DNA of 64,000 bases, taken from the NCBI GenBank assembly GCA_021804825.1, contig JAJZGX010000002.1:2760-66759 (forward strand). The letters are read 5' to 3'. The notes beneath the pieces are model-generated. The model was not told where the DNA came from, did no database searches, and saw only the letters and a program-made list of their open reading frames with translations. Shown here one piece after another: positions 33,767 through 49,260 of this stretch (its first letter is position 1; each line of letters opens with the position of its first letter). Both the position numbers and the translations under genes were made by a program. The DNA is from Pseudomonadota bacterium. GTDB lineage: Bacteria; Pseudomonadota; Alphaproteobacteria; Rhizobiales; Beijerinckiaceae.

Positions 33767-34459
33767 ATGAACGCGGTGGTTCAGGTGGACATGTGGGCTT
33801 GGTCGCTCGACCCGTCCGCGCATGCCATTGCCCATCATGCAGCGCTGCTTGATCGCGAAGAACGGGTGCGCGCCGGGCGCTTCCTCAACGAGCGTCATGG
33901 AAGCCGCTTTGTCGTCGGACGCGCCGGCATGCGGCTGCGGCTGGCGCGCTATATGAAAAAGTCTCCGGCCGATCTGGTCTTCACCTATGGCCCGCATGGC
34001 AAACCCATGCTGGCCGAAGCCGGTGCGCCGCATTTCAACTTGGCACATAGCGATGGCGAGGCGGTGCTGGCCGTCTGCCGCGAGCAGGCCGTGGGCGTCG
34101 ATGTCGAGCGTGGACACCGATTGGATACGGATATTGTCAGCCGGTTTTTTTCGGACGCAGAAATAGCCGCATGGCAACTGCTGCCGGACGCGTCGCGCGA
34201 GCGGGCGTTTTTCCGGGCATGGACCGCCAAGGAAGCGGTGTTGAAGGCGCTGGGCGTCGGATTGTCGGTGCCACTGTCGGCCTTCAGTGTGCGCATCAGC
34301 GCCGAAGAACCCCTGCAATTGCAATCGGCCCCACAGGGCGCAGCTTTGCCTGAAACCTGGTCCATGCAGGAATTTGCCCCGGCTCCTGACTATTATGGCA
34401 CATTGGCGGTGGCTGCGCCGCGCGTCGTCATAAACTGGCGGTCGCTGTCGGAGCGCTGA
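33767..34459 (+). CDS. 4'-phosphopantetheinyl transferase, Sfp/EntD type
   Basis: ATG 33767 is preferred over the TTG 33749 of the track, because the TTG lies inside the terminator T-run. Motifs: ..GPHGKPML.., FNLAHSDGEAVLAV, VGVDVER and FFRAWTAKEAVLKALGVG (W/KEA motif). Confidence 0.85.
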   Translation: MNAVVQVDMWAWSLDPSAHAIAHHAALLDREERVRAGRFLNERHGSRFVVGRAGMRLRLARYMKKSPADLVFTYGPHGKPMLAEAGAPHFNLAHSDGEAVLAVCREQAVGVDVERGHRLDTDIVSRFFSDAEIAAWQLLPDASRERAFFRAWTAKEAVLKALGVGLSVPLSAFSVRISAEEPLQLQSAPQGAALPETWSMQEFAPAPDYYGTLAVAAPRVVINWRSLSER

Positions 34460-34556
34460 CGGGGTTAGAATGGCGCTTGTAGCGCCCGCCATCTCTGGCT
34501 TAAGCTCGGCGCATTCTTGCAGTATGATTCGCACAACCAAAGCTTCTGGAGCCGCC

Positions 34557-35234
34557 ATGACCACGCTCACCCTCGATTCGCTTGATCTTGCCGCCCTTGT
34601 CGCCTCTCGGGTCTGCCATGATGTCATCAACCCGGTCAGCGCCATCATCAACGGCCTCGAGGTGCTTGATGAAAATGTCGATGATCCCGAAATGCGCCAG
34701 CATGCGCTGGAACTTGTGCGCAGCAGCGCGCAATCGGCGTCAGCCAAACTGCAATTTTGCCGCCTTGCCTTCGGCGCATCGGGTTCGATCGGGGCGATGA
34801 TCGACACGGGTGATGCTGAACGCGTGGCGCGCCATCTGTTTGAAAACGAGCGCACGAAGCTGGAATGGGATGCGCCACGCATTTTGCTGGCCAAGAACAA
34901 GGTGAAGGTCATCCTCAATCTCTGCCTCATCGCCAATGCCTGCATCTATCGCGGTGGCATTGTGGCGGTGAAAATCTCCGGCGAGGACGCCGATTTTGCT
35001 TACAGCGTCGAAGCGCGCGGCACCAATGCCAAGCTTCCGAGTGCCATACCGGGGCTGCTGGAGGGCAAGCCTGAGAACGACGCTGTCGATGGCAATTCAA
35101 TCCAGCCATTTTATACCGGGGTGGTGGCACGCGCCAGCAACCTCACCCTGAACGTCGTAGTGGAGGCCGATTGCGTGGCGTTTGCTGGCCGCTCTATGGA
35201 GATCGTCGAGAAAAACGATGCTGAAGCGGCCTGA
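34557..35234 (+). CDS. chpT: Histidine phosphotransferase ChpT (CckA-ChpT-CtrA/CpdR phosphorelay type)
   Basis: Start re-set to ATG 34557 behind GGAG. LAALVASRVCHDVINPVSAIINGLEVLDE.. (phospho-His in CHD), ..AKLQFCRLAFGASGS.. and a degenerate ATPase-like C-terminal domain. It is collinear with Caulobacter ChpT as I recall it. Confidence 0.85.
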   Translation: MTTLTLDSLDLAALVASRVCHDVINPVSAIINGLEVLDENVDDPEMRQHALELVRSSAQSASAKLQFCRLAFGASGSIGAMIDTGDAERVARHLFENERTKLEWDAPRILLAKNKVKVILNLCLIANACIYRGGIVAVKISGEDADFAYSVEARGTNAKLPSAIPGLLEGKPENDAVDGNSIQPFYTGVVARASNLTLNVVVEADCVAFAGRSMEIVEKNDAEAA

Positions 35235-35328
35235 TGGCCCTTGCAGGTTTTGATTTCAAGGCTCCCTTAATACCTTTCTGAAATTCTGTTCAGCAAGACG
35301 CAAGCGGCGCGTCTCGGCTGGCTGACGC

Positions 35329-37890
35329 ATGGACGATTTGCTCAAAGAATTTCTGACCGAAACCAGCGACCATATCGAGGCCGCGGGCAGCCAGATCGTG
35401 CTGTTCGAGCGCGACCCCTCGAATGCGCAACTGATCGCAGGTATTTTCCGGCTGGTGCATACGATCAAGGGCACCTGCGGCTTTCTCGGTCTGCCGCGTC
35501 TGTCACGGCTGGCTCATGCCGCCGAGGCGATGATCTCGCATTTGCGCGACGGTGGCCGACCGGAAACCTCGCACGTCTCGCTGATTCTGGCGGCGATCGA
35601 CCAGGTGAAATTCATCATTGCCGAGCTTGAGCGCACGGGTGCCGAGCCGGAAGGCGATGATGCCGCACTGATTGCCCGCCTGACTGCCGTGCGCGAGGGT
35701 GATGTCGGCGCCGTTGGTGCCGCGACCCCGCCGCTCGCGCCCGCGCCGACAGAGGCGGCTGCCGAGATCAACACGCCGATGGCGGTGACGGACGTGCCGG
35801 TGACGGCCCCCGAACCTGCGGCGCGACACGAGACCGTGCGCGTTTCCGTCGATACGCTCGAACGCATGATGATGCTGGTTTCGGAACTGGTGCTGACCCG
35901 CAACCAGTTGCTCGACATCGTGCGGCGGCGCGACGACGAGACGCTGAACCAGCCGCTGATTCGCCTGTCGTCGCTGACCTCGGATCTGCAGGACAGCGTC
36001 ATGCGCTCGCGGATGCAACCGGTCGGGCGCCTGTTCGCGGGGCTGCCGCGGTTGGTGCGTGAACTGGCCAGCGAACTGGGCAAGCCGCTGCAACTGATCA
36101 CGGCGGGGGCCGAAACCGAGGTTGATCGCCAGATCATTGAACTGATCCGCGATCCGCTGACCCATCTCATCCGCAATTGCGCCGACCACGGTATCGAGCC
36201 GCCCGCCGAACGCGCCACCCGCCGCAAGGCCGAGACGGGCACCATCCGGGTCAGCGCTTCCCATGAAGCCGGCCAGATCATCATCGAAATCTATGATGAC
36301 GGGCGCGGGCTGGATGTTGCCCGCATCCGCGCCAAGGCTATGGCGATGCGCCTCGTACCCGAGGCCGACATTGCGCGGATGAATGACGAGGAAATCTGCC
36401 GCTTCATTTTTGCGCCGGGCTTTTCGACCGCCAGTGCAGTGACCAGTGTTTCCGGCCGCGGTGTCGGCATGGATGTGGTGCGCGAAAACCTTGAGGCGCT
36501 CGGTGGTTCGGTGGCGCTTTCGACCACGGCCGGGCAAGGCACCAGCTTTTTCCTGAAAATTCCGCTGACGCTGGCGATTGCGCCTGCCTTGATCATCGAG
36601 GGCGAACCTGGCCAGCGGTTTGCCTTGCCCCAGCATTGGGTCGTCGAAGTGGTGGGGCTTGACGAAACCGGGGGGCCATCGATCGAATGGGTGCAGGGGG
36701 CAAGTCTGCTGCGCCTGCGCGAAGCGGTCATTCCGGTGATCAATCTCTGCCAATTGCTCATGCAAGAGGGCCATGCGGCGGAATCCTCGGCCTGCGACCG
36801 CATCGTCGTCATGCGCCTGCGGGATTTCACCTTCGGTCTGCGGGTGCGCGGTGTTGCCGATGTGCAGGAGGTGGTGGTCAAGCCGCTGGGCTCGCTGCTC
36901 GGGCCTTTGCCGCTATTTTCCGGCAATACCATTCTGGGTGACGGCGCGGTCGTGCTGATCCTCAATCCCGGTGAAATTGCACAGCGACTTGGCCTCGAGC
37001 GCGTTAGCGATTTTCGCGTGCATGCGCGCGCCGAAGAGTTTGTCATCCCCGCCACGCGCACCAGAATGATCCTGTTCAGCGCCGGTTCTGGCCCGCTGAA
37101 GTGCCTGCCGCTGTCGGTGATCAGCCGGGTCGAGCAATTCGACACAGCCGCCATCCAGAAGGGCGAAAATTGCCTGGTTGTGCCGTTCCAGGGCCGTTTG
37201 ATGCCGTTGCTGATGGTCGGCGAGGACATTGATCTGGCTTTGGCGCCGCAATGCCCGGTGCTGGTCATGGCGGTCGGCGGCGAGCCAATGGGCCTGATCA
37301 TTTCCGCCATTGTCGATATCGTCGATGTCGAGCTTGATATTGAAATTGCCGGGCATCATGATCGGGTGCTGGGCATGGCGCAGATCGGCGACGCGGCGGT
37401 TGAAGTGCTGGACGGTGCCTGGTTCATGAACAATGCCCGCCCGCAGGCTTTCGCGCGCGGTCAGGTCAAGCGTTTTCATGTGTTGCTGATCGATGACAAG
37501 TCGTTTTTCCTCGACTTGCTGTCCCCGGTGCTTTCGGTGGCTGGCTATGATGTGACCACCACGGATTCGGCCGCTCAGGCGATCATGCTGATGGAGCGCG
37601 GCGCCAAATTCGAAGCCATCATAACCGACACCGACATGCCGGACATGGATGGCTATACGCTGGCCCGTGCGCTGATTGCCGATCAACGCTGGAGTTGCCC
37701 GCCCATCCTCGCGCTGGCCTCCTATGCTGGCCCGATCATTCAACAGGCGGCAAAGGCCAGCGGCATGGTGACCGCCGTCGGCAAATTCGACCGTCGTGCC
37801 TTGTTGAAGAGCCTGGCTGATGTCCTCGATCAGGCCACCATCGCGAAACAGACCATCGAAACCGATTTGATTGCGAGGCTGCACACATGA
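35329..37890 (+). CDS. cheA: Hybrid chemotaxis histidine kinase CheA: HPt - dimerisation - HATPase - two CheW-like domains - C-terminal receiver
   Basis: 853 aa. HPt is FRLVHTIKGTCGFLG. The kinase core has DPLTHLIRNCADHG, DDGRGLD and GRGVGMDVV. Two CheW-like segments follow, then a REC (HVLLIDDKS..AIITDTDMPDMDG..VGKFD). Confidence 0.93.
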   Translation: MDDLLKEFLTETSDHIEAAGSQIVLFERDPSNAQLIAGIFRLVHTIKGTCGFLGLPRLSRLAHAAEAMISHLRDGGRPETSHVSLILAAIDQVKFIIAELERTGAEPEGDDAALIARLTAVREGDVGAVGAATPPLAPAPTEAAAEINTPMAVTDVPVTAPEPAARHETVRVSVDTLERMMMLVSELVLTRNQLLDIVRRRDDETLNQPLIRLSSLTSDLQDSVMRSRMQPVGRLFAGLPRLVRELASELGKPLQLITAGAETEVDRQIIELIRDPLTHLIRNCADHGIEPPAERATRRKAETGTIRVSASHEAGQIIIEIYDDGRGLDVARIRAKAMAMRLVPEADIARMNDEEICRFIFAPGFSTASAVTSVSGRGVGMDVVRENLEALGGSVALSTTAGQGTSFFLKIPLTLAIAPALIIEGEPGQRFALPQHWVVEVVGLDETGGPSIEWVQGASLLRLREAVIPVINLCQLLMQEGHAAESSACDRIVVMRLRDFTFGLRVRGVADVQEVVVKPLGSLLGPLPLFSGNTILGDGAVVLILNPGEIAQRLGLERVSDFRVHARAEEFVIPATRTRMILFSAGSGPLKCLPLSVISRVEQFDTAAIQKGENCLVVPFQGRLMPLLMVGEDIDLALAPQCPVLVMAVGGEPMGLIISAIVDIVDVELDIEIAGHHDRVLGMAQIGDAAVEVLDGAWFMNNARPQAFARGQVKRFHVLLIDDKSFFLDLLSPVLSVAGYDVTTTDSAAQAIMLMERGAKFEAIITDTDMPDMDGYTLARALIADQRWSCPPILALASYAGPIIQQAAKASGMVTAVGKFDRRALLKSLADVLDQATIAKQTIETDLIARLHT

Positions 37891-38387
37891 CCATTTCTGC
37901 AACCCCCTCGGCCCGTGCCATTCTAGCTCCCGTCGTGCAGCAGGCCGTCGCGACCACAAGAATTTTCACCGTCCGGGTCGCTGATGAGACATTTGGCATC
38001 CCGGTGGCCGCTGTCCACACAGTGTTCATGATCGATCGGCTTTCGCCGGTGCCCTTGGCCCCTGTAGCGGTCATGGGACTGGTCAATCTGCGCGGCCGCA
38101 TCGTCACGGCACTGAGTTTGCGGCGCCGTCTCGGCCTTGCCGAGCTCAATGTCTCGACCAGAGTGGCCATCGTCATGGAAAACGAGGGTGAAATGCTGGC
38201 CCTCGTCGTTGATGAGGCCGGCGATGTCATTGATCTCGACGCCCATGACCAGATCGAATTGCCACGACACATGACGGCCAGCCGGGCCGCCGTGACCCGC
38301 GCGGTTTATCGCCATGCCCGCGGCCTGCTTTCCATCCTCGATATGGCGGCAATTTATGCCCTGACGCCCGCGATGACAAATTCCTGA
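37887..38387 (+). CDS. cheW: Chemotaxis coupling protein CheW
   Basis: 166 aa CheW-like domain (..IFTVRVADETFGIPVAAVHTV..VNLRGRIVT..). ATGA overlap with cheA. Confidence 0.9.
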   Translation: MTISATPSARAILAPVVQQAVATTRIFTVRVADETFGIPVAAVHTVFMIDRLSPVPLAPVAVMGLVNLRGRIVTALSLRRRLGLAELNVSTRVAIVMENEGEMLALVVDEAGDVIDLDAHDQIELPRHMTASRAAVTRAVYRHARGLLSILDMAAIYALTPAMTNS

Positions 38388-38421
38388 AACTTCACCCATG
38401 CTCACATCAAGGTCAAAAGTC

Positions 38422-38790
38422 ATGAAACACGTTCTGGTTGTCGACGATTCATCCGTCATCCGAAAAGTTGCCACCCGCATTCTCGAATCGATGCGCTTTG
38501 ACGCTTCCGAGGCACCTGGCGGGCGCGAGGCGCTGGCTGCCTGCCAGGAGCATATGCCCGATGCCATCCTGCTGGACTGGAACATGCCGGAGATGGATGG
38601 GTTTCAGTTCCTGCAGGAATTGCGTCGCATGCCAGGTGGCCACGGCCCCAAGGTGTTGTTCTGCACGACCGAGAACGAAGTGGCCTATATTGCAAAGGCC
38701 ATGCATGCCGGTGCCGACGAATATATCATGAAGCCGTTCGACAAGGATATATTCCGCTCGAAACTCCAGGAAATCGGCCTCATCGCGTAA
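38422..38790 (+). CDS. cheY: Chemotaxis response regulator CheY (single receiver domain)
   Basis: Start re-set to ATG 38422: MKHVLVVDDSSVIRKV..AILLDWNMPEMDGFQFL..IMKPF. Confidence 0.9.
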   Translation: MKHVLVVDDSSVIRKVATRILESMRFDASEAPGGREALAACQEHMPDAILLDWNMPEMDGFQFLQELRRMPGGHGPKVLFCTTENEVAYIAKAMHAGADEYIMKPFDKDIFRSKLQEIGLIA

Positions 38791-38824
38791 CGCCGCCACG
38801 CCACGCAGCAGGGGTCAGATCGAC

Positions 38825-39502
38825 ATGCGAACCGCACCGGATGCTCCAGGCGATGTCATAAAGGCGGTGGGCGAACCCATCGTCATGCGACGTTTTTCGC
38901 CCATGCCCCCCGCCGCGCTGCTGATAGGCGCTTCGACAGGCGGCCCGCAAGCCCTCGAACTTTTGCTGACAACCGCCTCGAGCTGGCTGCGGCTGCTGCC
39001 CATCGCTGTGGTGCTGCACGCGCCGCCCGGTTTCATCGAGGTCGTTGCTGCCAATATTGCCCGCGCTTCCGGCATGCCCACGCGGATCGCCTGCCATGGT
39101 GACAAATTCCTGCCCGGCACGATCTATTTCGCCCCCGGCGACAAGCATTTGCGAGTCATGCGGGCCGACCGCCGGGTGATCCTGATGCACAGCGATGCCA
39201 AGCCCGAGAATTTCTGCAAGCCGGCAGTGGACGTGCTGTTTTCCAGCGCCGCACGCGCTTTTGGCCCCGAGGCGCTGGGCATTGTGCTCACCGGCATGGG
39301 ACGCGATGGCCTGGCCGGTTCACGGATGCTCGTTGACGCTGGTGGCTCGGTGATCGTGCAGGACGAAGCCTCTAGCGCTGTCTGGGGCATGCCAGGGTCC
39401 ATTGCCCGCGCCGGACTGGCCAGCGCGGTCTTGCCGCTGGCCGGCATGGCTTCGGCGCTCGATGGCCTGCTGGTGGCGAAGCAGCGGAGGGTCACGGCGT
39501 GA
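38825..39502 (+). CDS. cheB: Protein-glutamate methylesterase CheB, catalytic domain only (no N-terminal receiver)
   Basis: 225 aa with the catalytic Ser motif IGASTGGPQAL, His in VLHAPPGF and Asp in LTGMGRDG. There is no REC domain in frame upstream. Confidence 0.88.
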   Translation: MRTAPDAPGDVIKAVGEPIVMRRFSPMPPAALLIGASTGGPQALELLLTTASSWLRLLPIAVVLHAPPGFIEVVAANIARASGMPTRIACHGDKFLPGTIYFAPGDKHLRVMRADRRVILMHSDAKPENFCKPAVDVLFSSAARAFGPEALGIVLTGMGRDGLAGSRMLVDAGGSVIVQDEASSAVWGMPGSIARAGLASAVLPLAGMASALDGLLVAKQRRVTA

Positions 39503-40365
39503 ACATGAACGTCAAAGCCCTCCAGAGATTTCTGTCGCAGCAGGCCGGTCTCGCCTTCCCGCCCGAGAAAGCCTGGCTCGCCGAAAGCCGCCTGCAGCCC
39601 GTGGTGGAACGCCACGGCCTTCCCACCATTGATGCGCTGATCGGCCAGATCGTTTCCGGTTTCGAGCCGCAGCTCGCCGCTGAAACCGTGGAAGCGATGC
39701 TGACCCACGAGACATTTTTCTTTCGCGATCGCCTGCCGTTTGATCAGTTCCGCACGACCATGCTGCCGGATATCATGCGCCTGCGCGATTCCGATCGCCG
39801 CATCCGTATCTGGTCTGCGGCCTGTTCAACCGGGCAGGAGCCCTATTCTTTGGCCATGCTGCTCGATGAGGAATCGCGCAAGCTGAATGGCTGGCGGGTT
39901 GAATTGCTGGCGTCGGATATTTCCGCTTCGGTCATTGATGTGGCGCGGCGTGGTTTGTTCTCGCAATTCGAGGTGCAGCGCGGTTTGCCGATCAACCACT
40001 TGCTGCGTTATTTCCATCGTGCCGGCGAATATTGGGAAATCGCCGAGCATATCCGGGCGCGGATCGAATTCCGGCAGATCAATCTCATGAGCAACATCAG
40101 CCGACTGGGCCAGTTCGACCTGATTTTTTGCCGCAACGTCCTGATCTATTTCGACGACAAAACCCGCGCCAGTGCACTCGCGCAATTGACCTCCGCGCTG
40201 GCGCCGGGTGGCTATCTGGTTTTGGGCGCCTCCGAATCCCTGCCCGACTGCCCGGAGGATCTGAAGCCCATGTCGTTTCAAAACAGCATTTTCCGCAAGA
40301 CTGAAGCGGGCTCGCCGCTGGAGCGCCATTGGGCGCAACCCGGCTCGCGCCTGAGCAAGCTGTAA
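39499..40365 (+). CDS. cheR: Chemotaxis protein methyltransferase CheR
   Basis: 288 aa with ..THETFFFRD.., the SAM motif RIWSAACSTGQEPYSLAM and ..IFCRNVLIYFD.. The start is GTG 39499 (overlapping the cheB stop) or ATG 39505. Confidence 0.92.
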   Translation: MNMNVKALQRFLSQQAGLAFPPEKAWLAESRLQPVVERHGLPTIDALIGQIVSGFEPQLAAETVEAMLTHETFFFRDRLPFDQFRTTMLPDIMRLRDSDRRIRIWSAACSTGQEPYSLAMLLDEESRKLNGWRVELLASDISASVIDVARRGLFSQFEVQRGLPINHLLRYFHRAGEYWEIAEHIRARIEFRQINLMSNISRLGQFDLIFCRNVLIYFDDKTRASALAQLTSALAPGGYLVLGASESLPDCPEDLKPMSFQNSIFRKTEAGSPLERHWAQPGSRLSKL

Positions 40366-40371: not shown

Positions 40372-40950
40372 ATGCAGCCGCCACGCATTGTGGAGACCCT
40401 GCGGCTGACGCTGCGGCCTGTGGCGCTCGGGGACGCCCGCGAGATTTATCGCGGCTGGGCCGGGCGCGCCAAGGCCACCAGAATGATGAATTTTCCGCGC
40501 CATCTCAACCAGACAGCGAGCCAGGCCTGGGTCGAACGCTGTCTTCGCAACTGGCAAGAGGCAACGGCTTTTGCCTATATGATCCTCTTGCGGGATACCG
40601 GCGAGCGCATGGGGTCGATCGAAATAGCCCTGCAAGGCAGCGCTGCTGAAATCGGCTATATATTGGCAGAACAGTTCTGGGGCCGCGGCTATGCCACCGA
40701 GGCAACCAGGGCGCTGGTCGACTGGGCCGAAGCGCAGCGCGACATCGGCCGCATCAGCGCCACCTGCCACCCCGATAATATCGCCTCAAGCCGGGTCATT
40801 GAAAAAGCCGGATTGCACCTCGAAGGCCGTTTGGAGGATGCGACCAGCTGGCCGCAATTGCAGCGCAGCAATGGCCCTTGTCTGGTCTACAGCCGCTCCT
40901 TCGGAGGCCCGCGACAGCCGATCGAGCATGCGCCGCTCAGGCTGCAATGA
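40372..40950 (+). CDS. GNAT-family N-acetyltransferase (RimJ/RimL-like)
   Basis: 192 aa: LRLTLRPVALGDAREIY.. ..GYILAEQFWGRGYATEATRALVDWA.. ..NIASSRVIEKAGL.. It starts 6 nt after the cheR stop. Confidence 0.8.
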   Translation: MQPPRIVETLRLTLRPVALGDAREIYRGWAGRAKATRMMNFPRHLNQTASQAWVERCLRNWQEATAFAYMILLRDTGERMGSIEIALQGSAAEIGYILAEQFWGRGYATEATRALVDWAEAQRDIGRISATCHPDNIASSRVIEKAGLHLEGRLEDATSWPQLQRSNGPCLVYSRSFGGPRQPIEHAPLRLQ

Positions 40951-41929
40951 CGGCCGGGCGCGCCTTGGCCGCAATGGTTTCCAGCCAGCCGGCATAAAGC
41001 TCAACGGCGGTCTCGCGCCAGCGTTGGCGCGGCGTGTGCGTCGCCAGCACATCATCGAGGCGGTGCAGCAAGGCTGGGTCACGCTGCTGAATGGCCGTTG
41101 CGGCGAGGTCTTGCAGACGCTGGCGCAGCGCCGGTGAAAAATAACTGGTCGGCAAGGCCGGATGGTGGGCCGTTTCGCCGTTCAGAAAGCGGCGCACGTC
41201 GCGGCGATATTCGAGGCCGAGCGCATTGGCATTATATTCCGGATGGCCCTGGACAAAGAGCATGTGCGGGCTGGCGGCGCGGGTAAACCAGTCCGGCCCG
41301 GCTTCTGCGCTCTGGGTGAGAATGACATAGTCATTGGCACGCAATTGCGCGGCATCAAGCGTGTTGTAGCGCGATTGCGGCGTCAAAGGATTGCCGGCAA
41401 GATGGCGCAAGACCGGCGCATCGCCGACAAGTTCTGTCTGGAAGACGCCGCTGAGTTTCTCTTGCAGGCGCACCCGCTCGATGCCGTCAAGATGCAGCAC
41501 GGCGGCATGCGCGGCGCGACACGACCACAAAACCGGCAATTCCTGCGCCGCCGTCGTTGCAATCAGCGCCGCCATTTTGGCCCAATGCGGTTCGGCGCGC
41601 ATGTCAGGCAACAAGGCTTCGCCGCCGGTGACGACCAAAGCATCGAGGCCAGCTTCGCCAAGCGTGGCAACATCGGCCGAAGTGGCGGCAAGTTCTGCGG
41701 CGATTTCAGGATTGCGCGGAATTTCACTGATATGAAACAGGCTGAGCGTCAGCATGGGAAAGCCGAAGCCGAGCAGGCGGGCAGCGTTGGCGATGAGTTC
41801 GGCAAACTGCCGTTCGGTGGCGCGCAACGCCGCATCGGGCATGTTATTGACCAGGCCGATGCGCAGCGGCTTGCGCCGTTTGGGCAGGAACAGGTTGGGC
41901 AGGAACAGCTTCGTGTCATCGGTCGGCAT
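40937..41929 (-). CDS. MetA/HTS-family homoserine O-acyl(succinyl/acetyl)transferase homologue, divergent
   Basis: 330 aa. LRIGLVNNMPDAALRATERQF corresponds to the MetA LNLMPxK..TE.QF region. The catalytic Cys context is LWSCRAAHAAV and the His/Glu context is FVQGHPEYN. It has an extra C-terminal tail. It is the last gene of the 4-gene operon. Confidence 0.75.
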   Translation of the reverse strand: MPTDDTKLFLPNLFLPKRRKPLRIGLVNNMPDAALRATERQFAELIANAARLLGFGFPMLTLSLFHISEIPRNPEIAAELAATSADVATLGEAGLDALVVTGGEALLPDMRAEPHWAKMAALIATTAAQELPVLWSCRAAHAAVLHLDGIERVRLQEKLSGVFQTELVGDAPVLRHLAGNPLTPQSRYNTLDAAQLRANDYVILTQSAEAGPDWFTRAASPHMLFVQGHPEYNANALGLEYRRDVRRFLNGETAHHPALPTSYFSPALRQRLQDLAATAIQQRDPALLHRLDDVLATHTPRQRWRETAVELYAGWLETIAAKARPAVIAA

Positions 41930-41933
41930 CGGT

Positions 41934-43250
41934 TCAGCCTCCAGCTGCCAGGCGCAGGGGAGCGCGGTGCTTTACCGCCGCACCTAGCGCCTGATCGAGA
42001 TCAGCGATAATGTCGTCAATGTGCTCAATGCCAACACTGATGCGGATGGTTTCGGGACGAATCCCGGCCTTGATCTGATCCTCCGGGGTCATCTGCCGAT
42101 GGGTGGTGGAGGCCGGATGGCACGCCAGCGTCTTGGCATCGCCGATGTTGACGAGACGGCGCACCAGTTTCAGCGCGTCAAAGAACGCCTTGCCATCCTC
42201 CATGCTGCCGGCGATGCCAAAGGTCAGCAGCGAAGGCGCTTTGCCGCCAAGCTGGCTTTGCACCAGAGCGTGCCCGGGATGCTCGGGAAAGCCGGCATAA
42301 TTGACCCACCCCACCCGCCGATCATTCCGCAAAAACTGCGCCACGGCGCTGGCATTGCTGACATGGCGCTCCATGCGCAATGACAATGTTTCGATGCCCT
42401 GCATGAGCTGAAATGCGCTGGTCGCAGGCAGAATGGCGCCGGTCGTCCGCATCCAGACGGAGCGGGCGCGGGCGATATAGGCCCCCGCACCAAAGCGCTC
42501 GGCATAAACGAGGCCGTGATAGGAAAGGTCCGGCTCATTGAAAATCGGAAAGCGCGTTGGCTGCAGGCGCCAATCGAAGCGCCCTGAATCAATGATGATG
42601 CCGCCGAGCGTTGTGCCATGTCCGCCCATGAATTTGGTCAGCGAATGCACGACAATGTCGGCGCCATGCTCGATCGGGCGCAGCAAGGCCGGAGTCGCGA
42701 CGGTATTATCGACCAGCAGCGGCACGCCAGCCTCATGGGCGACACGGGCGATGGCAGCAATATCGCAGATATTGCCGGCCGGGTTGCCGACACTCTCGCA
42801 GAACACCGCGCGGGTGGTGTCGTCGATTTCAGCGGCAATATCTTCGGCGCTGTCACTTCTGGCGAAGCGCACCTTGATGCCTTGGCGTGGCAGCACATGC
42901 GCCAACAATGTGTGTGTGGTGCCATAGAGTTGCGGGGTGGCAACAATCGTGCCGCCGTGATCGGCCAGCGTCACAAAGGCATAATGCAGGGCCGCCTGCC
43001 CGCTGGCGACGGCGAGTGCACCAATGCCGCCCTCCATCGCCGCGACGCGTTTTTCGAGAATGTCCGTGGTCGGGTTGGAAATGCGGCTGTAGCGGAATCC
43101 CTCGGCCTCAAGATCAAACAAGGCGGCGGCATGGTCAGCGCTGTCGAAAATATACGCAGCCGTCTGATAAATCGGCACGCTCGCTGCCCTGGTGGTGGGG
43201 TCGCCATCGAAGCCAGCATGGATCGCCAATGTTTCCAATCGCATCGCCAT
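41934..43250 (-). CDS. metY: O-acetyl/O-succinyl-homoserine sulfhydrylase-type PLP enzyme (MetY/MetZ, Cys/Met-metabolism PLP family)
   Basis: 438 aa: ETLAIHAG.., YSRISNPT, the PLP-Lys motif VVHSLTKFMGGHG, and ..HPASTTH.. GGAGG RBS at 43252-43256 (minus strand). Confidence 0.88.
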   Translation of the reverse strand: MAMRLETLAIHAGFDGDPTTRAASVPIYQTAAYIFDSADHAAALFDLEAEGFRYSRISNPTTDILEKRVAAMEGGIGALAVASGQAALHYAFVTLADHGGTIVATPQLYGTTHTLLAHVLPRQGIKVRFARSDSAEDIAAEIDDTTRAVFCESVGNPAGNICDIAAIARVAHEAGVPLLVDNTVATPALLRPIEHGADIVVHSLTKFMGGHGTTLGGIIIDSGRFDWRLQPTRFPIFNEPDLSYHGLVYAERFGAGAYIARARSVWMRTTGAILPATSAFQLMQGIETLSLRMERHVSNASAVAQFLRNDRRVGWVNYAGFPEHPGHALVQSQLGGKAPSLLTFGIAGSMEDGKAFFDALKLVRRLVNIGDAKTLACHPASTTHRQMTPEDQIKAGIRPETIRISVGIEHIDDIIADLDQALGAAVKHRAPLRLAAGG

Positions 43251-43257
43251 GCCTCCG

Positions 43258-44187
43258 TCAGGTCAACTGCAGGCTGCGTCGCAGCTTGGCAGGCCAGAGC
43301 GCCGGATCGAGCCCATGCGTCGCAAACATCGCGACGGCGAGGCGATCCATGCCGAAGGCGACGCAACCGCTGTGCGGCATCGCACCGTCCTCATCGCGCA
43401 TGTCCCAGACTTCTGTGAAATGTTCGAGGTGGTAGTTGAAACTCATGCAGGCCGTGGGCTTGGTTGCTGACACCACGGGCACCAGCAACTCGAATTTCAG
43501 GGCCAACTGCACCTGACTTGCCGCCATTATCTCACCGCCGCGCCCGAAGAACGGATCATTGGCGACATCCACGCCATAGGCGAGGCCCAACTCATCGGCC
43601 ATGCCCTGGGCGCGCTCGATCCATTCGGCACGAAAGGCAAGGATTTGCTCGGCTGTGCCGATGCGCACAAATTCGCGCATCCGGAACGACTGCAAGCGAT
43701 CGATGGATTTTGAAGGTTCGCGGCGAAAACAATCGCAGGCGACATCGAACCAGAGGCCGGCGCGCGGCACCGGCCCGGCTTGCGCCGCCATGGGGTAGAT
43801 CGGGTAGCAACTCGCCGGGCTGAGCACCAGATCACTCGCCGCCAGCGCATCGGTCCAGTCGGATTGCCCGGCATTGAAGCTGGCGACTGTGCCGGTGATT
43901 TCCCGCTCGGAACCAGTAAGACAGCACATGCACCCAAGTAAATTGGGGAAGGAATTCAGATAGCCCGACCGCTCGATCATCTTGCGGCTCATCACCGGCG
44001 GAAACCTGAAGACCGCCGCCTGTGCCGGTCGTCGACTATCGATAAACGCCTCGAGGCCACGCACCACCGCCTCATAACGCCCGGTGCGCGCCAGCACGCC
44101 GTCCACACCCATCGGGCGAAACAGGGTCTCGATCAGCTCTTGCTGGCCATCGGCGTCGAGCGGAGCTGGTTTCAGGGCGACATTCAT
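43258..44187 (-). CDS. Truncated class II aminoacyl-tRNA-synthetase homologue (SerRS-like catalytic core), amino acid:[carrier-protein] ligase type
   Basis: 309 aa with no N-terminal tRNA-binding arm. Motif 2-like is DCFRREPSKSIDRLQSFRMREFV. A SerRS-like segment is ACMSFNYHLEHF. Motif 3-like is SGCVAFGMDRLAVAMF. A Cys/Glu/Cys set (SPASCYP, FRRE, SGC) matches the Zn site of the methanogen-type SerRS lineage. Confidence 0.75.
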   Translation of the reverse strand: MNVALKPAPLDADGQQELIETLFRPMGVDGVLARTGRYEAVVRGLEAFIDSRRPAQAAVFRFPPVMSRKMIERSGYLNSFPNLLGCMCCLTGSEREITGTVASFNAGQSDWTDALAASDLVLSPASCYPIYPMAAQAGPVPRAGLWFDVACDCFRREPSKSIDRLQSFRMREFVRIGTAEQILAFRAEWIERAQGMADELGLAYGVDVANDPFFGRGGEIMAASQVQLALKFELLVPVVSATKPTACMSFNYHLEHFTEVWDMRDEDGAMPHSGCVAFGMDRLAVAMFATHGLDPALWPAKLRRSLQLT

Positions 44188-44211
44188 GGATATGACTCCG
44201 TTGGCGTTGGA

Positions 44212-45429
44212 TCAGGCGGTGAGCGTCGCTGGCATCGAGATCATCAGCGGGGATATCCCGAGATTGCCCAGAATGCGATCATTGTTGATCATCAACGGTG
44301 CGGAGAGAACGTCGCGCAAAGCACGGGCGTTGCTGGCTTCGCCATCTTCGCGGTAGCCCGGCAGGCCGTTGGCGCGCAGCGAGGCCATCACCGAGGCGAC
44401 GGCAAGCTCCGAGACATCAACCTTCAACAGAGTGATCGCCGTCTGAATATCGAGCTGGTTCAGCAAATCGGGCGTGCTGGCGGCATTTTCGTACTGGTCC
44501 AGCGTGTTGTTGAGCATGGCGCGCAGCGCGGTGAGATGGGTCGCGGCGCGGTTCAGCCAGGTGATGCCGGACGGCACAGTGCCGCTGCTGGTGGCCAATT
44601 TGCGCAAGTGCCGCCTTGCCCGCTCGTGCGCGCCCGCCGCAATGCCAGCCCAGACCCCGCCCCACATCAGATGCGCGGAGGGTATCATGGATTCGGCATG
44701 GATCGTGGCGTAATCGACCGGCATGATCTGGCCAATCTGGCCGCGGGCCTTGAGGCCGAACCCGGTCGAACACGTGCCCCGCATCCCCAGGGTCTCCCAA
44801 CCGAAGGTCGGCGTCAGGCTGTAGTCGCTCTTGTCCAGAATGACCAACACCTGGTCTGAAGCGGCGGCGGCGGCGCTGCGCCGGGCCGTGGTCACCAAGG
44901 CATCGGCCTGCTCGCCGTAAGACAACACTGTTGCAGCCCGCTCCAGCGTGAAAAAGCCACCATCCTCGATGACTGGCCCCGTGGAATTGCGCACATCGCC
45001 GCCGCTTTGGCCTTCGGTGGTGGACGAGGCCAGAAGCAATTGGTCAGTGACCATGCGCCGCATGAAGGCCATGTGCCACGGGCTTTCGCCATAATGGCCG
45101 ATGATGCAGGCAGCCTTGACGTGGTGCATCGCAAAAATCATCGCGGTCGAGGCGCAGGTCTGCCCCAGAATAAAGCAAACCTCGACAATGTCGCGCACGC
45201 TGGCGCCGCTGCCGCCAAAAGTGGTCGGCACCATGGCACCAAGCAATTTGTGCTCGCGCACCGCCGCCATGGCTTCATGCGGAAAGCGGCTGGCCCGATC
45301 GACTTGCGCGGCATGGGTGTTGGCGATGGCGGCAATTTTGTGTGCACTTTGCACAAACGGGCTGCTTTTCTTCGTTGACGCATCCAGCATGCCGTGCATA
45401 GATTGATGTATGTTCACGCCGATCTCCAT
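44212..45429 (-). CDS. Acyl-CoA dehydrogenase-fold flavoprotein (ACAD type-2 / DszC-SfnB-PltE-like)
   Basis: 405 aa: ..RFPHEAMAAVREHKLLGAMVPTTFGGSGAS.. ..TEGQSGGDV.. ..WETLGMRGTCS.. It is the first gene of the operon, directly downstream of the AT-rich region. Confidence 0.8.
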   Translation of the reverse strand: MEIGVNIHQSMHGMLDASTKKSSPFVQSAHKIAAIANTHAAQVDRASRFPHEAMAAVREHKLLGAMVPTTFGGSGASVRDIVEVCFILGQTCASTAMIFAMHHVKAACIIGHYGESPWHMAFMRRMVTDQLLLASSTTEGQSGGDVRNSTGPVIEDGGFFTLERAATVLSYGEQADALVTTARRSAAAAASDQVLVILDKSDYSLTPTFGWETLGMRGTCSTGFGLKARGQIGQIMPVDYATIHAESMIPSAHLMWGGVWAGIAAGAHERARRHLRKLATSSGTVPSGITWLNRAATHLTALRAMLNNTLDQYENAASTPDLLNQLDIQTAITLLKVDVSELAVASVMASLRANGLPGYREDGEASNARALRDVLSAPLMINNDRILGNLGISPLMISMPATLTA

Positions 45430-45590
45430 AAGCTCTCTGGATAACTTCTTGCTTAATGAAGTTAACCTTGCATGTCCGAAAAGTTTTACAACAGGAAATT
45501 GATCATATCGCTAACAAAGGCAGTAAAGATAAAATTATATTTATAGTTCAATTTTATGATGTTATTTAATGTTTTGTTGACTCTGGTTTT
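45430..45590. promoter_or_regulatory. AT-rich divergent promoter/regulatory island between the ACAD-ligase operon (-) and the GST gene (+)
   Basis: I count 47 G+C in the 160 nt 45431-45590 (about 29%) and 23/100 in 45481-45580, against visibly GC-rich flanks. Runs include aaagataaaattatatttatagttcaattttatgatgttatttaatgtttt. I could not fix a -35/-10 pair with confidence. Confidence 0.6.
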
Positions 45591-45728
45591 CTTCGCGCGC
45601 GCGAGGTGGCCACGGGGACGCACGCCATTGCGGAAAACCGCAAGATTGCGGCATCAACGCCGCGCAGGGCCTTGCTTCAGACGCGAAGCAGCGTCAAAAT
45701 TGCATCCAACTCGAAGAGGTCCGTCGTG

Positions 45729-46352
45729 ATGCAACTTTATAATTCGCCCCTGTCACCCAATGGCCGCATTGTCCTGCTGACGGCGCGTCATCTCGGGCTT
45801 GAGCTCGACACCCATGTGGTCAATGTCGCCGCTGGTGAGCACAAGTCGCCAGATTATCTCAAGCTCAACCCCAATGGCCTGTTTCCGGTGCTGGTGGATG
45901 GCGATTTCAAATTGTGGGAGGCCAATGCCATAGCGCAGTTTTTGTGCAGCAAGGTGCCTGGCACGCGGCTCTGGCCGCAACAGGGCAGGGCGCAGGCCGA
46001 TGTGACGCGCTGGCAGTTCTGGGCGGTCGCGCATTGGCTGCCGGCGCTGGCGCCGTTTTTCCGGGAAAATTACTTCAAGCAGTTGCGTCGACAGGGCGAG
46101 CCGGATGCAGCGGTGCTGGCGGCGGCCCTGCCGCAGTTGCAGCGGTTCGCCACCGTGCTGGAGGGCGCGCTCACCGGGCGCACCTGGCTTGCCGGTGACA
46201 GTGTGACCTTGGCAGATTTCGCGGTGGCTGCCGGATTGATGTTTCTCGAGGCTGGCAAATTGCCGCTGCACGACTACAAGGCCATCATGGCCTGGTTCGA
46301 GTCCATCAGGGCGCTGCCGGCCTGGGCGGAAACCACACCAAGGCTGCCATAA
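45729..46352 (+). CDS. Glutathione S-transferase family protein
   Basis: Start re-set to ATG 45729 (MQLYNSPLSPNGRIVLLTARHLGLELD..) with an AAGAGG RBS. N-terminal thioredoxin-like domain (..NPNGLFPVLVDGD..LWEANAI..) and a C-terminal alpha domain. Confidence 0.85.
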   Translation: MQLYNSPLSPNGRIVLLTARHLGLELDTHVVNVAAGEHKSPDYLKLNPNGLFPVLVDGDFKLWEANAIAQFLCSKVPGTRLWPQQGRAQADVTRWQFWAVAHWLPALAPFFRENYFKQLRRQGEPDAAVLAAALPQLQRFATVLEGALTGRTWLAGDSVTLADFAVAAGLMFLEAGKLPLHDYKAIMAWFESIRALPAWAETTPRLP

Positions 46353-46442
46353 CCACATACTATATTTGTGCAATAAAATAATTTACAATTTGATTGTGGT
46401 AATATAGGAGATGGGTATTCGGTTGAACCCAAAGGACGTGTC

Positions 46443-47348
46443 ATGCCTGCCCTGAGTCGTCATCTGCGCGCGCTGGAAAGCGAGGCGATTTTCATCATGC
46501 GCGAGACAGTGGCAGAATTTGCGCATCCCGTGATGCTGTATTCGATCGGCAAGGATTCCAGCGTCATGCTGCATGTGGCGCTCAAGGCCTTCAGTCCCGG
46601 TCGCCTGCCGTTCCCGCTGCTGCATGTCGATACGACATGGAAATTTCGTGAAATGATCGCCTTTCGCGATGCGGTGGCCGCGCGCCATGAGCTGAAGATG
46701 ATTGTCCATATCAACCAGCAGGGGCTTGAACGCGGTGTTTCGCCGATCACTTCCGGGTCGTCGGTGCACACCCATGTCATGAAGACCGAGGGGCTGCGCC
46801 AAGCGCTGGACCAGCACCAGTTTGACGCAGCCTTCGGCGGGGCGCGGCGCGACGAAGAAAAATCGCGCGCCAAGGAACGCATCTTTTCGCACCGGTCGTC
46901 GGCCCATGCGTGGGATCCGCGCAACCAGCGCCCGGAATTGTGGAATCTTTTCAACACCCGCATCAAGCGCGGTGAATCCATGCGGGTGTTCCCCCTGTCG
47001 AACTGGACCGAGGCCGACGTGTGGGATTATATTGCCGCCGAAAATATCGCGGTGCCGGACCTTTATTTAGCCAAGCCGCGCCCGGTCGTCTGGCGCGACG
47101 GCACCTGGATCATGGTCGATGATGAGCGCTTGCCGTTGTTGCCGGGCGAGAACCCGGAGATCAAGATGGTGCGCTTTCGCACGCTTGGCTGCTATCCGCT
47201 GACCGGTGCCGTGCCATCGACCGCCACCACCTTGCCCGAGATCATCGCCGAAATGCGCAGTTCCAGCGTGTCTGAACGCCAGGGACGCCTGATTGACGCC
47301 GATGAGACCGGGTCGATGGAAAAGAAAAAGCGTGAGGGATATTTCTGA
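46443..47348 (+). CDS. cysD: Sulfate adenylyltransferase subunit 2
   Basis: 301 aa: [14 protein letters not shown].., [16 protein letters not shown] (PP-loop), ..[18 protein letters not shown]-terminus. Confidence 0.95.
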
Positions 47349-47349
47349 C

Positions 47350-49260
47350 ATGACCGCTCATGCCCTAGCCAGCGCCGATGCTCCTGCGTCCGCCGCTGCC
47401 CTTGCCACGAATTCTTTGGATTTGCCGACATTGCGCTTCATCACCTGCGGGTCGGTGGATGATGGCAAATCGACGCTGATCGGCCGTCTGCTGTTCGAGC
47501 GCCGCCTGATCCCCGATGATTTGCTTGCAACCCTGCGGCGCGACAGTCTGCGCCATGGCACGGATGGCGACAATATCGACTATGCCTTGCTGGTAGATGG
47601 TCTCGAAGCCGAGCGCGAACAGGGCATCACCATTGATGTCGCCTGGCGCTATTTTGCCACGCCGACCCGCTCCTTCATGGTGGCAGATACGCCCGGCCAT
47701 GAGCAATATACCCGCAATATGGCGACCGGCGCTTCGCAGGCCGATTGCGCTGTGGTGCTGGTTGATGCGCGCAAGGGCGTCTCGCGCCAAACGCGACGCC
47801 ACGCTGCCATTGTCGCGCTGATGGGGGTTCGTCATGTCATTCTGGCGGTCAACAAGATCGACCTGGTTGCTTATGATGCCGCCGTCTTCCATGCCATTGC
47901 CGCTGAATTTACCGCTTTCGCCACGCGTCTGGGGCTTGAAGGCGTCGTCGCTCTGCCTCTGGCGGCGCGGTTTGGCGATAATATGTCGGCGCGGGGCGAG
48001 CGGCTGGGCTGGTTTGATGGCCCGACGCTGATCGAAGCGCTGGAGCGTGTCAGCATCACGTCAACCATGGTGCCCCTGCCTTTTCGCATGTGGGTGCAAT
48101 GGGTAAACCGGCCCGATCTGAATTTTCGCGGGTTGGCGGGGACCATTGCCAGCGGCAGCATCGGCGTTGGCGACAGCGTGGTGATGGCACCCTCGGGGGC
48201 TAGTGCCAAAATCCGCCGCATCCACACGGCCGATGGTGATCTCACCCGCGCCACAACCGGCGATGCCGTCAGCCTCGTGCTCGATCACGAAATCGATGCG
48301 GCGCGCGGCGACCTTGTTTCGATGCCGGAAAGTCGTCCGCAGGTTGCTGACCAATTTGCCGCGCATCTCATCTGGATGAGCGCGGACAAGCTGTTGCCGG
48401 GCCGCTCTTATCTGATGAAAATCGGCTCGCGGTTGGTGCCGACTTCCGTGACCGCCATCCGCAGGCGCATCGATGTCGATACTCTGGAACCGCTGGCCGC
48501 CGCGACTCTCGACCTCAACGAGATCGGCGTCTGCAACCTGTCGACCAGCGTGCCGATCAGCTTTGATGCCTATGCCGACAATCACGCCACCGGGGCTTTC
48601 ATTCTGATCGACCGCGAAACCAATGTTACGGCAGCGGCGGGCATGATTGATTTTGCGCTGCGGCGGGCCACCAATGTCCATCGTCAGGCCTTGGTGATCA
48701 ACAAGGCCGAGCGCGCCACACTCAAGGGCCAAAAGCCGCTGATCCTGTGGTTTACCGGCCTTTCCGGGTCCGGCAAATCGACCATCGCCAATCTGGTGGA
48801 GGCGAGGCTGCACGCCATGAGCGCCCACACCACCTTGCTCGATGGCGATAATATGCGCCATGGTCTCAACCGCAACCTTGGCTTCACCAATGCTGACCGG
48901 GTGGAAAATATCCGACGTGTTGGCGAAGTCGCCAAACTGATGCTGGAAGCGGGCGTCATCGCGCTGTGCTCGTTCATCTCGCCCTTCAAAGCTGATCGCG
49001 ATATGGTGCGGGCACTGGTCGAACCCGGTGAATTCATCGAAATTTACGTCGAGACCAGCCTGGAAGCCTGTATCGCCCGCGATACCAAGGGCCTCTACAA
49101 GCGCGCCTTGGCAGGCCAGATCAAGAATTTCACGGGGATCGATCAGCCCTATGAGGCACCGGAAGCCGCTGAACTGGTGCTGACCACCGAAGGCGCATCG
49201 GCAGAGGCTCTGGCTGATCGGGTGATCGACTATGTGCTCGCGCACGGCATGCGGGGCTGA
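47350..49260 (+). CDS. cysNC: Bifunctional sulfate adenylyltransferase subunit 1 / adenylylsulfate (APS) kinase (CysN-CysC fusion, NodQ-like)
   Basis: Start re-set to ATG 47350, 1 nt after the cysD stop. GTPase motifs are GSVDDGKST, DTPGHEQY and NKID. The C-terminal APS kinase has the P-loop GLSGSGKST. Confidence 0.93.
   Translation: MTAHALASADAPASAAALATNSLDLPTLRFITCGSVDDGKSTLIGRLLFERRLIPDDLLATLRRDSLRHGTDGDNIDYALLVDGLEAEREQGITIDVAWRYFATPTRSFMVADTPGHEQYTRNMATGASQADCAVVLVDARKGVSRQTRRHAAIVALMGVRHVILAVNKIDLVAYDAAVFHAIAAEFTAFATRLGLEGVVALPLAARFGDNMSARGERLGWFDGPTLIEALERVSITSTMVPLPFRMWVQWVNRPDLNFRGLAGTIASGSIGVGDSVVMAPSGASAKIRRIHTADGDLTRATTGDAVSLVLDHEIDAARGDLVSMPESRPQVADQFAAHLIWMSADKLLPGRSYLMKIGSRLVPTSVTAIRRRIDVDTLEPLAAATLDLNEIGVCNLSTSVPISFDAYADNHATGAFILIDRETNVTAAAGMIDFALRRATNVHRQALVINKAERATLKGQKPLILWFTGLSGSGKSTIANLVEARLHAMSAHTTLLDGDNMRHGLNRNLGFTNADRVENIRRVGEVAKLMLEAGVIALCSFISPFKADRDMVRALVEPGEFIEIYVETSLEACIARDTKGLYKRALAGQIKNFTGIDQPYEAPEAAELVLTTEGASAEALADRVIDYVLAHGMRG

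Follow-up and report, generated by a model that had tools for sequence, protein, structure and literature searches.

A four-gene operon in a Beijerinckiaceae genome as the probable reduced core of a widespread amino acid:carrier-protein ligase cluster

The window analysed here is a 64,000-nucleotide (nt) stretch (positions 2,760 to 66,759 of contig JAJZGX010000002.1, assembly GCA_021804825.1) of a metagenome assembly of an uncultured, soil-type bacterium assigned to the alphaproteobacterial family Beijerinckiaceae. It carries a run of four minus-strand genes that encode, in order, a flavoprotein with the acyl-CoA dehydrogenase (ACAD) fold (44212-45429), an amino acid:[carrier protein] ligase (LIG; 43258-44187, 309 amino acids (aa)), a MetY-type enzyme dependent on pyridoxal phosphate (PLP) (METY; 41934-43250) and a divergent MetA-like acyltransferase of the HTS family (HTS; 40937-41929, 330 aa). 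Measured between the longest open reading frames (ORFs), the genes are separated by only 24, 7 and 4 nt, and the last of them overlaps by 14 nt a convergent GNAT gene on the plus strand (40372-40950). This layout had been described in an initial annotation made from the letters of the DNA, and its coordinates were confirmed, with revised starts for metY and the flavoprotein gene. The quartet is found in the same order in the close relatives L088-L090 (78-94% amino-acid identity) and in the more distant loci L091 and L119, so the arrangement is not due to chance. No terminator-like sites above the shuffled expectation were detected inside the quartet. Judged from these comparisons, the four genes form one real operon that is maintained by selection. 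The GNAT gene was considered as a fifth member and rejected: in L088 it is shorter and does not reach into the operon, and L089 and L090 lack it.

The longest ORF of the flavoprotein gene spans 405 aa, and translation probably starts at GTG 45417, which is preceded by GGAGA (45423-45427, minus strand) and yields a protein of 401 aa, the start being placed as in 401-aa orthologues. A GGAG motif resembling a Shine-Dalgarno (SD) sequence precedes the ligase gene (44196-44199, minus strand). The SD sequence of metY, GGAGG at 43252-43256 of the minus strand, had been pointed out in the initial annotation and reads as described there, between the ligase stop codon (43258-43260) and the metY start. 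It stands 1 nt from ATG 43250, the first codon of the 438-aa ORF, and 7 nt from ATG 43244; because the former spacing is only 1 nt, ATG 43244 is the likely start. With this start, the protein has 436 aa, the length called by gene callers on public contigs, and the gap to the ligase gene becomes 13 nt. The SD sequence of the MetA-like gene (GGAGG, 41938-41942, minus strand) is contained in the terminal part of metY and precedes ATG 41929 by 8 nt, an arrangement consistent with translational coupling.

Profile searches with Pfam and NCBIfam models agree with the four family assignments that had been made earlier. LIG matches NF005479, the model for amino acid--[ACP] ligases (ACP, acyl carrier protein), with 430 bits against a cutoff of 357, and aligns end to end, at ~60% identity, with Bll0957 of Bradyrhizobium diazoefficiens (PDB 3MEY; E = 4e-119). 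Models of seryl-tRNA synthetase (SerRS) match LIG over the C-terminal core only, and the tRNA-binding domain is missing; as read from these alignments, LIG is a tRNA-independent relic of a class II SerRS with a methanogen SerRS-like core. The active-site zinc ligands of Bll0957, which we take to be Cys131, Glu176 and Cys279, align with C127, E172 and C275 of LIG, all three invariant in 24 relatives. Relatives are present in at least 591 species-level genomes, including those of Bradyrhizobium, Caulobacteraceae, Methylocapsa and Steroidobacteraceae. Ligases of this kind have reportedly been described biochemically and structurally by Mocibob et al. in 2010 and 2013, and Bll0957 is said, in the 2010 work, to be specific for glycine. 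By orthology and shared context with Bll0957, glycine is the likely substrate of LIG, alanine being less likely. The biological role of these ligases was called unknown in a 2022 review (PMC9437257), and the earlier statement that this role is unresolved is still what the literature that we reached says.

The sole Pfam match of the flavoprotein is Acyl-CoA_dh_N (PF02771), the models of the middle and C-terminal ACAD domains not being hit; with NCBIfam models it reaches at most 81 bits (cutoff 600), and all curated equivalog models failed. Its AlphaFold2 (AF2) model (predicted local distance difference test (pLDDT) 82.5, predicted template-modelling score (pTM) 0.86) gave 315 PDB matches with E <= 1e-3 in Foldseek. 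The top 50 listed are all ACAD-fold proteins, with DszC and TdsC at ranks 1-5, followed by MsuC, KijD3 and nitrososynthase. ACADs carry their catalytic glutamate either at the Glu376 position of medium-chain acyl-CoA dehydrogenase (MCAD) or at the Glu254 position of isovaleryl-CoA dehydrogenase (IVD). In profile alignments, the MCAD-type glutamate (E of YEGT in 8i4p) is faced by an invariant Ile381, and the IVD-type position (aligned with 7p98) is occupied by Ala252. Because both catalytic Glu positions are Ile or Ala, the flavoprotein is, by this alignment, not a classical alpha,beta-dehydrogenase. The best PDB sequence match is 6CXT chain B (E = 1.8e-11, mostly in the N-terminal half), that is, Bmp3, a prolyl-S-carrier-protein oxidase dependent on flavin adenine dinucleotide and complexed with its own carrier protein (PMC8857579).

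Genes for HpaC/RutF/HsaB-like NAD(P)H:flavin reductases lie inside 13 related clusters, usually right after HTS (directly so in L010, L014, L033, L039 and L042) or before ACAD (directly so in L040), a further example being L087 (11035-11565). Their presence argues for a two-component flavin oxygenase, for which the ACAD-fold protein is the sole flavoenzyme candidate there. Given the missing Glu pair and the flavin reductases of the related clusters, an oxygenase or oxidase is more likely than a dehydrogenase of the PltE type. Dehydrogenation of the PltE/RedW/ZmaI type, which the initial annotation had suggested, is thus disfavoured by the Ile and Ala at the catalytic positions, by low scores with the RedW model (34 bits, cutoff 650) and the PigA model (43 bits, cutoff 500), by a fold that is no nearer to true ACADs than to the oxygenases DszC, TdsC and nitrososynthase, and by these reductases.

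METY matches PF01053 with 423 bits and passes TIGR01326, the model for O-acetylhomoserine (OAH) sulfhydrylase, with 584 bits against a cutoff of 495; it fails equivalog-level models such as PRK06084 (628 against 790). It is >50% identical to solved homocysteine synthases, and its PLP-lysine motif SLTKFMGGHG aligns with SMTKFLGGHG of the OAH sulfhydrylase 8SF5. The E-values are 2e-135 for 8SF5 and 2e-132 for Fub7. To judge from these scores, the nucleophile of METY, sulfide or another, is not separable by sequence, sulfhydrylases and Fub7-type enzymes being matched alike.

HTS matches PF04204 with 162 bits and falls below every NCBIfam MetA cutoff (293 against 358 for NF003776, 108 against 495 and 93 against 460); its relatives pass NF003776 with 372-404 bits. 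In the alignment with Escherichia coli MetA, Cys137, His229 and Glu231 correspond to Cys142, His235 and Glu237, and the SRY arginine and the RD motif (equivalents of Arg193 and Arg249) are kept. Across the HTS clade, the E. coli residues Lys47 and Gly111 are replaced by Ala and Leu, respectively; we take both positions to be donor determinants of MetA, with Gly at residue 111 going with succinyl and Glu with acetyl. All of the top seven fold matches of the AF2 model (pLDDT 90.7) are MetA proteins, at a target-normalised TM-score of ~0.8. The clade comprises ~326 clusters at 50% identity (E <= 1e-30). No paralogues of METY or HTS were found elsewhere in the window.

The MetA-like protein had been called divergent, and the comparison extends this point: HTS appears as a member of a distinct clade, that of NF003776, which is embedded in a carrier-protein cluster and is not canonical MetA. 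NF003776 (PRK05368.1-3) labels the whole clade 'homoserine O-succinyltransferase MetA'. Because its members sit in carrier-protein clusters and differ at MetA donor-side positions, this equivalog name may be an over-annotation, and the clade probably does not act in ordinary methionine synthesis.

The ligase census covered, with one genome per species, the best 80 of the at least 591 relatives, with flanks of up to 10 kb; gene counts refer to the 60 loci whose 10-kb flanks are complete, each translated in six frames and searched with profiles. The ACAD gene adjoins LIG, directly upstream, in 79 of the 80 loci. All 60 counted loci contain ACAD, LIG and CP1, a ~95-aa PP-binding protein encoded divergently upstream of ACAD. 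METY is present in 32 of the 60, and HTS, always together with METY, in 27. The further members are a PRK08279-type long-chain acyl-CoA synthetase (FACL; 32/60), a second carrier protein, CP2 (36/60), a 463-aa AMP-ligase (38/60), a FabG-like SDR (39/60), an Abhydrolase_3 esterase (26/60), an enzyme dependent on thiamine diphosphate (ThDP; 13/60) and F5, a ~290-aa protein (270-300 aa; 45/60, e.g. L091 6618-7427). F5 has invariant Cys, Asn, Ser and Trp residues (CNxSSW motif), and its sequence matched nothing in Pfam, NCBIfam or the PDB; its place in the cluster makes it a probable member of the Atu2574-like family. In 2010, it was predicted from gene neighbourhoods that the Atu2574-like protein attaches the amino acid to a sugar on the cell surface and that the redox enzyme acts on it as a monooxygenase (PMC2922099).

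The METY-HTS pair lies on either side of the CP1-ACAD-LIG trio, on either strand and in several gene orders. The nearest relative beyond the window lineage, L091, has contiguous ACAD-LIG-METY-HTS, upstream of which CP1 and the other cluster genes lie in divergent orientation, and its ACAD is 61-65% identical to that of the window lineage; L119 has the same contiguous quartet with CP1 divergent upstream. The order is ACAD-LIG-CP1-METY-HTS in L040 and METY-HTS-CP1-ACAD-LIG in L025, and in Steroidobacteraceae-type loci (L051) a single operon, divergent from ACAD-LIG, contains both HTS and CP1, with a 16-nt overlap between the two genes. Lineages bearing the pair include Caulobacteraceae, Methylocapsa, Roseiarcus, Xanthobacteraceae, Rhodopseudomonas, Rhizomicrobium, Steroidobacteraceae and a betaproteobacterial metagenome-assembled genome. 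The linkage of METY and HTS to ACAD-LIG recurs in Alpha-, Beta- and Gammaproteobacteria. The varied positions and strands across lineages point to selection rather than inherited synteny.

The four genes and the carrier protein are genomically coupled. The co-occurrence check thus supports the earlier proposal that the quartet works together, METY-HTS being linked to ACAD-LIG in many orders and the quartet recurring in L091 and L119, and the dedicated carrier protein that had been expected away from this locus has its counterpart in CP1, found in all 60 relatives and absent from the window. The idea of a self-contained four-gene pathway did not hold up. By its gene content, the window quartet is better described as the retained, reduced core of a widespread proteobacterial cluster of ~10-14 genes.

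In Bradyrhizobium (L026, L028 and others; ~5900-8000), CP1-ACAD-LIG stands beside genes for MtnA (S-methyl-5-thioribose-1-phosphate isomerase) and 5'-methylthioadenosine (MTA) phosphorylase, both scoring above curated cutoffs, an adjacency that forms a further link to methionine metabolism. Furthermore, in a phaR mutant of Bradyrhizobium, bll0957 and bll0958 were induced together with metZ (PMC10888616).

The reciprocal census took 25 metagenome loci that are centred on HTS and are 8 kb or longer: METY is adjacent in 24 of the 25, an acyl-CoA synthetase is present in 17, an AMP-ligase in 14, an SDR in 14 and the CP1-ACAD-LIG trio in 10, many of these contigs being truncated. On individual inspection, three contexts (Tepidamorphus L087, L092 and L093) show the same specialised HTS neighbours. 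Locus L176 encodes a 711-aa fusion of HTS with a PP-binding and a thioesterase domain (P0463; 10001-12136), in a row formed by a class-B flavin-monooxygenase-like gene, METY, the fusion and an LCM-type methyltransferase gene; neither an ACAD nor a ligase gene is present in this locus. Another fusion, P0399 (813 aa, on a JGI contig), joins HTS to a group II PLP decarboxylase. Genes or fusions of such decarboxylases accompany METY-HTS in 23 loci (e.g. L092 7233-8651); their nearest models are the diaminobutyrate (DABA) decarboxylase RhbB and PanP, both below cutoff. This association suggests that, in many clusters, the product of MetY undergoes decarboxylation.

We favour, with moderate confidence, the reading that the quartet is a single operon and the core of the carrier-ligase cluster, with the ligase, flavoprotein, MetA-like and MetY proteins acting in one coupled pathway. 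In the first step of the route that we propose, LIG, acting as its family does, would adenylate a small amino acid and thioesterify it to the phosphopantetheine arm of the ~95-aa carrier protein, which would be supplied from elsewhere in the genome. The flavoprotein would then oxidise or oxygenate the tethered aminoacyl group at the amino nitrogen or the C-N bond; C-alpha/C-beta desaturation is not envisaged for it. The MetA-like enzyme, with the triad of its family, would produce an O-acyl-L-homoserine via an acyl-Cys137 intermediate, the substrates being presumed, and MetY would perform on that ester the PLP-dependent gamma-replacement of its family, thereby delivering a 3-amino-3-carboxypropyl unit. 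The nucleophile in this last step could be sulfide, yielding homocysteine that is used by the pathway, or the N or N-OH of the tethered oxidised glycine. The end product would be a small aminoacyl or homoserine-derived metabolite, and our best guess is a flavin-modified glycine, tethered to the carrier, to which a 3-amino-3-carboxypropyl or homocysteine unit has been attached. The ether- or sulfur-linked amino acid suggested in the initial annotation as a possible product is hypothetical. In the fuller clusters, CP2, the two AMP-ligases, the SDR, the esterase, the PLP decarboxylase and the Atu2574-like protein would process the product further.

Several observations weigh against this reading. 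No carrier protein was found in the 64-kb window, in the adjoining 10 kb on its right (74 kb searched overall) or near the close relatives of the window lineage, so that the acceptor of the ligase is not visible at the window locus. The window contains no flavin reductase gene, and the fold search does not tell oxygenase from dehydrogenase, as the E-values of true ACADs in the Foldseek list of the flavoprotein are within one order of magnitude of those of the oxygenases. About half of the LIG loci, including all those of Bradyrhizobium, have no METY or HTS within 10 kb. Among solved structures, METY is as near to Fub7, which forms C-C bonds, as to the homocysteine synthases 8SF5, 7KB0 and 2CTZ. 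Finally, the operon lies beside cysD-cysNC, and plain sulfur assimilation would explain both the neighbours and the similarities of METY.

This last point bears on an alternative under which the MetA-like and MetY proteins constitute the organism's direct-sulfhydrylation route to homocysteine, or a second such route, fed with sulfide from CysD/CysNC, and ACAD-LIG is a co-transcribed passenger that shares no intermediates with it, its own product being required under like conditions of sulfur or methionine supply. We regard this alternative as possible but rather doubtful. It fits the score of METY with TIGR01326 and its identity to homocysteine synthases, the MetA triad and the Arg193/Arg249 equivalents retained by HTS, the divergent placement of the operon next to GST-cysD-cysNC throughout the lineage, and the failure to find a second metA- or metY-like gene in the window; the location of the Bradyrhizobium trio beside mtnA and the MTA phosphorylase gene and its co-induction with metZ fit as well, although they do not require a shared pathway. 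However, whenever examined, the HTS clade occurs in the specialised cluster, with acyl-CoA synthetase, CP2, AMP-ligase and SDR; HTS can share an operon with CP1 or be fused to a carrier domain and a thioesterase; and with the canonical MetA equivalog models it stays far short of the cutoffs, at 108 bits for a cutoff of 495 and 93 bits for one of 460. Moreover, the PLP decarboxylases that accompany METY-HTS in 23 loci would be superfluous for a methionine pathway.

The absence of the carrier protein from the window could also reflect decay, with the carrier and the rest of the cluster lost and ACAD and LIG persisting as functionless passengers of a metY-metA operon. Profiles of CP1, CP2, both combined and known ACPs (E. 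coli AcpP, DltC) gave no match among the stop-to-stop frames of at least 30 aa in the window. The best carrier match, a 45-codon frame in the AT-rich region upstream of the operon (E = 1.3), was judged to be noise, as it has 27% GC and is not conserved; a 95-aa gene following HTS in L089 and L090 was rejected as a carrier, being a SAF-domain dehydratase subunit; and a carrier domain fused to a quartet protein was rejected as well, as the protein lengths match those of relatives and no PP-binding match was obtained. The window lineage (the window and L088-L090) is the sole sampled lineage without CP1 beside ACAD, and its locus also lacks F5, CP2, both AMP-ligases, the SDR, the esterase, the reductase and the decarboxylase, as decay would predict. 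Against decay, the ratio of nonsynonymous to synonymous substitution rates (dN/dS) in comparisons with L088 and L089 is lowest for LIG (0.04-0.05), followed by METY (0.05-0.07), HTS (0.10-0.12) and ACAD (0.10-0.19). Where conservation among relatives is 95% or higher (75 relatives in the case of LIG), the window retains 110 of 115 positions in LIG, 113 of 121 in METY, 64 of 68 in ACAD and 49 of 58 in HTS, and at least four independent assemblies show uninterrupted reading frames. All four genes are under purifying selection and are not decaying, and we consider the decay scenario highly improbable.

A third alternative concerns the acyl donor. HTS might be carrier-dependent, taking its acyl group from, or passing it to, the phosphopantetheine arm of CP1, for instance by moving an (oxidised) glycyl group onto the homoserine hydroxyl, with MetY then rearranging or replacing it. 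Several features are in line with such an activity: the fusion of HTS with PP-binding and thioesterase domains in P0463, the overlap of HTS and CP1 in the Steroidobacteraceae-type loci, the clade-wide Lys47-to-Ala and Gly111-to-Leu replacements at positions that we presume to lie on the donor side, and the purifying selection on HTS in the window lineage, which has no acyl-CoA synthetase beside it. Nevertheless, the long-chain acyl-CoA synthetase that accompanies HTS in 17 of the 25 loci suggests a CoA donor, and the fusion would attest functional proximity, not the direction of acyl transfer. We therefore hold a carrier-dependent HTS to be quite unlikely. A more elaborate version of the coupled pathway combines these elements into a thiotemplated route that dispenses with a nonribosomal peptide synthetase (NRPS) adenylation domain: the tethered glycine would be N-oxygenated and joined through an N-O or N-C bond to the 3-amino-3-carboxypropyl unit, HTS would act on the phosphopantetheine arm, and the present lineage would use a distant or different acceptor. 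This version, too, seems unlikely to us.

The region between the operon and the divergent genes GST (207-aa call), cysD and the CysN/APS-kinase fusion gene (APS, adenosine 5'-phosphosulfate; 45729-49260, plus strand) spans 45430-45728 and is poor in GC, with 27% over 45441-45590 and 32% over 45430-45600, compared to 60% in the window. The window, L088 and L089 share without any difference a 31-nt block, ATGCAAGGTTAACTTCATTAAGCAAGAAGTT (45443-45473, minus strand), despite a dS of 0.5-1.2 in the flanking genes. Inside it, TTAACTTCATTAA (45453-45465) has the form of a T-N11-A dyad and can be read as one of the kind bound by LysR-type regulators; a promoter-like site lies on the minus strand at 45580-45551. 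Low-GC dips precede ACAD in most relatives. Because it is conserved in the lineage and similar dips precede ACAD in relatives, the AT-rich stretch is best interpreted as a conserved regulatory region of the promoter/operator type. The low-GC island noted in the initial annotation is present, with its 27% GC core, and does not mark foreign DNA. A scar of horizontal gene transfer was rejected given the common dips in relatives, the lineage-conserved sequence and the location of the window in the core chromosome, which is marked by carB, rlmN and liv transporters. A riboswitch or leader RNA (e.g. SAM-II) was rejected as well: no Rfam match reached the gathering score in the whole window, and 45300-45800 gave only noise (E >= 0.57). 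All close relatives (L001-L006, L088-L090) keep GST-cysD-cysNC next to the operon, including those that differ on the opposite flank.

On the other side of the operon, 6.5 kb away and beyond a chemotaxis-like cluster, the window encodes a HetI/Sfp-type 4'-phosphopantetheinyl transferase (33749-34459, plus strand; Pfam ACPS; NF042922 with 141 bits, below cutoff), with the same synteny in L088. Such an activity would be needed for any holo-carrier protein of the ligase. The chemotaxis-like cluster itself (34470-40365, plus strand), between the transferase and GNAT genes, encodes a ChpT-like HPTransfase, CheA, CheW, CheY, a CheB-like methylesterase without a receiver domain, and CheR; it is absent at this position in L089 and L090.

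In an incomplete literature collection, we found no paper that links the amino acid:carrier-protein ligase to a MetA-like/MetY pair and no solved function for the ligase system beyond the work of Mocibob in 2010 and 2013 and PMC2922099. Taken together, the operon belongs to a known system of unsolved function, of which it is a reduced form with no carrier protein encoded locally. Its comparison with relatives ties the ligase-flavoprotein-carrier trio recurrently to the MetA-like/MetY pair, a flavin reductase, a PLP decarboxylase and a second carrier-protein module, which narrows the chemistry to a transfer in which a small amino acid, tethered and flavin-modified, receives a unit derived from homoserine or homocysteine. 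The minimal gene set for reconstitution can be named, namely, five genes including CP1, and the 15-year-old question of the function of these ligases becomes directly testable. At stake is a metabolite of common soil and rhizosphere bacteria.

The closest known system is Bll0957/Bll0958/Bsr0959 of B. diazoefficiens (PDB 3MEY, 4H2S), in which the ligase is ~60% identical to LIG and the flavoprotein gene lies directly upstream, as bll0958. The window locus differs in having no carrier protein gene and in that its ligase gene is followed by those for MetY and the MetA-like protein, whereas Bradyrhizobium has neither within 10 kb. Bmp3, PltE, RedW and PigA likewise exemplify an ACAD-fold flavoprotein that is genetically coupled to a loader of amino acids on a carrier; however, the loader in the window is an aminoacyl-tRNA synthetase relic and not an NRPS adenylation domain, its substrate is probably glycine or alanine rather than proline, and the flavoprotein match is weak, with non-acidic residues at the catalytic Glu positions. 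The two-component monooxygenases DszC/TdsC, MsuC and KijD3/ORF36 share with the flavoprotein the top Foldseek ranks, the absence of the catalytic Glu and, in 13 related clusters, the company of reductases, but true ACADs rank almost as high in the fold search, the window has no reductase gene, and the sequence scores are far below curated cutoffs. Isobutylamine N-hydroxylase VlmH is another two-component flavin monooxygenase of the ACAD fold.

Pairs of an O-acyl donor enzyme and a PLP-dependent replacement enzyme are known from fusaric acid (Fub5/Fub7), loline (LolC), rhizobitoxine (RtxA) and D-cycloserine (DcsE/DcsD) biosynthesis. They follow the same logic, in that the acyltransferase activates homoserine or serine and a PLP enzyme of the Cys/Met family substitutes a non-sulfur nucleophile; their acyltransferases are of the MetX type, whereas that of the window is of the MetA type, and we know of no such pair that is linked to an aminoacyl-tRNA synthetase-like ligase or a carrier protein. 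The direct-sulfhydrylation pathway (MetA/MetX with MetY) employs the same two families as the window, adjacent and with intact catalytic residues. Unlike in that pathway, the HTS clade of the window stands apart: its genes occur in a carrier-protein cluster, and some of its members are fused either to a PLP decarboxylase or to both a carrier domain and a thioesterase.

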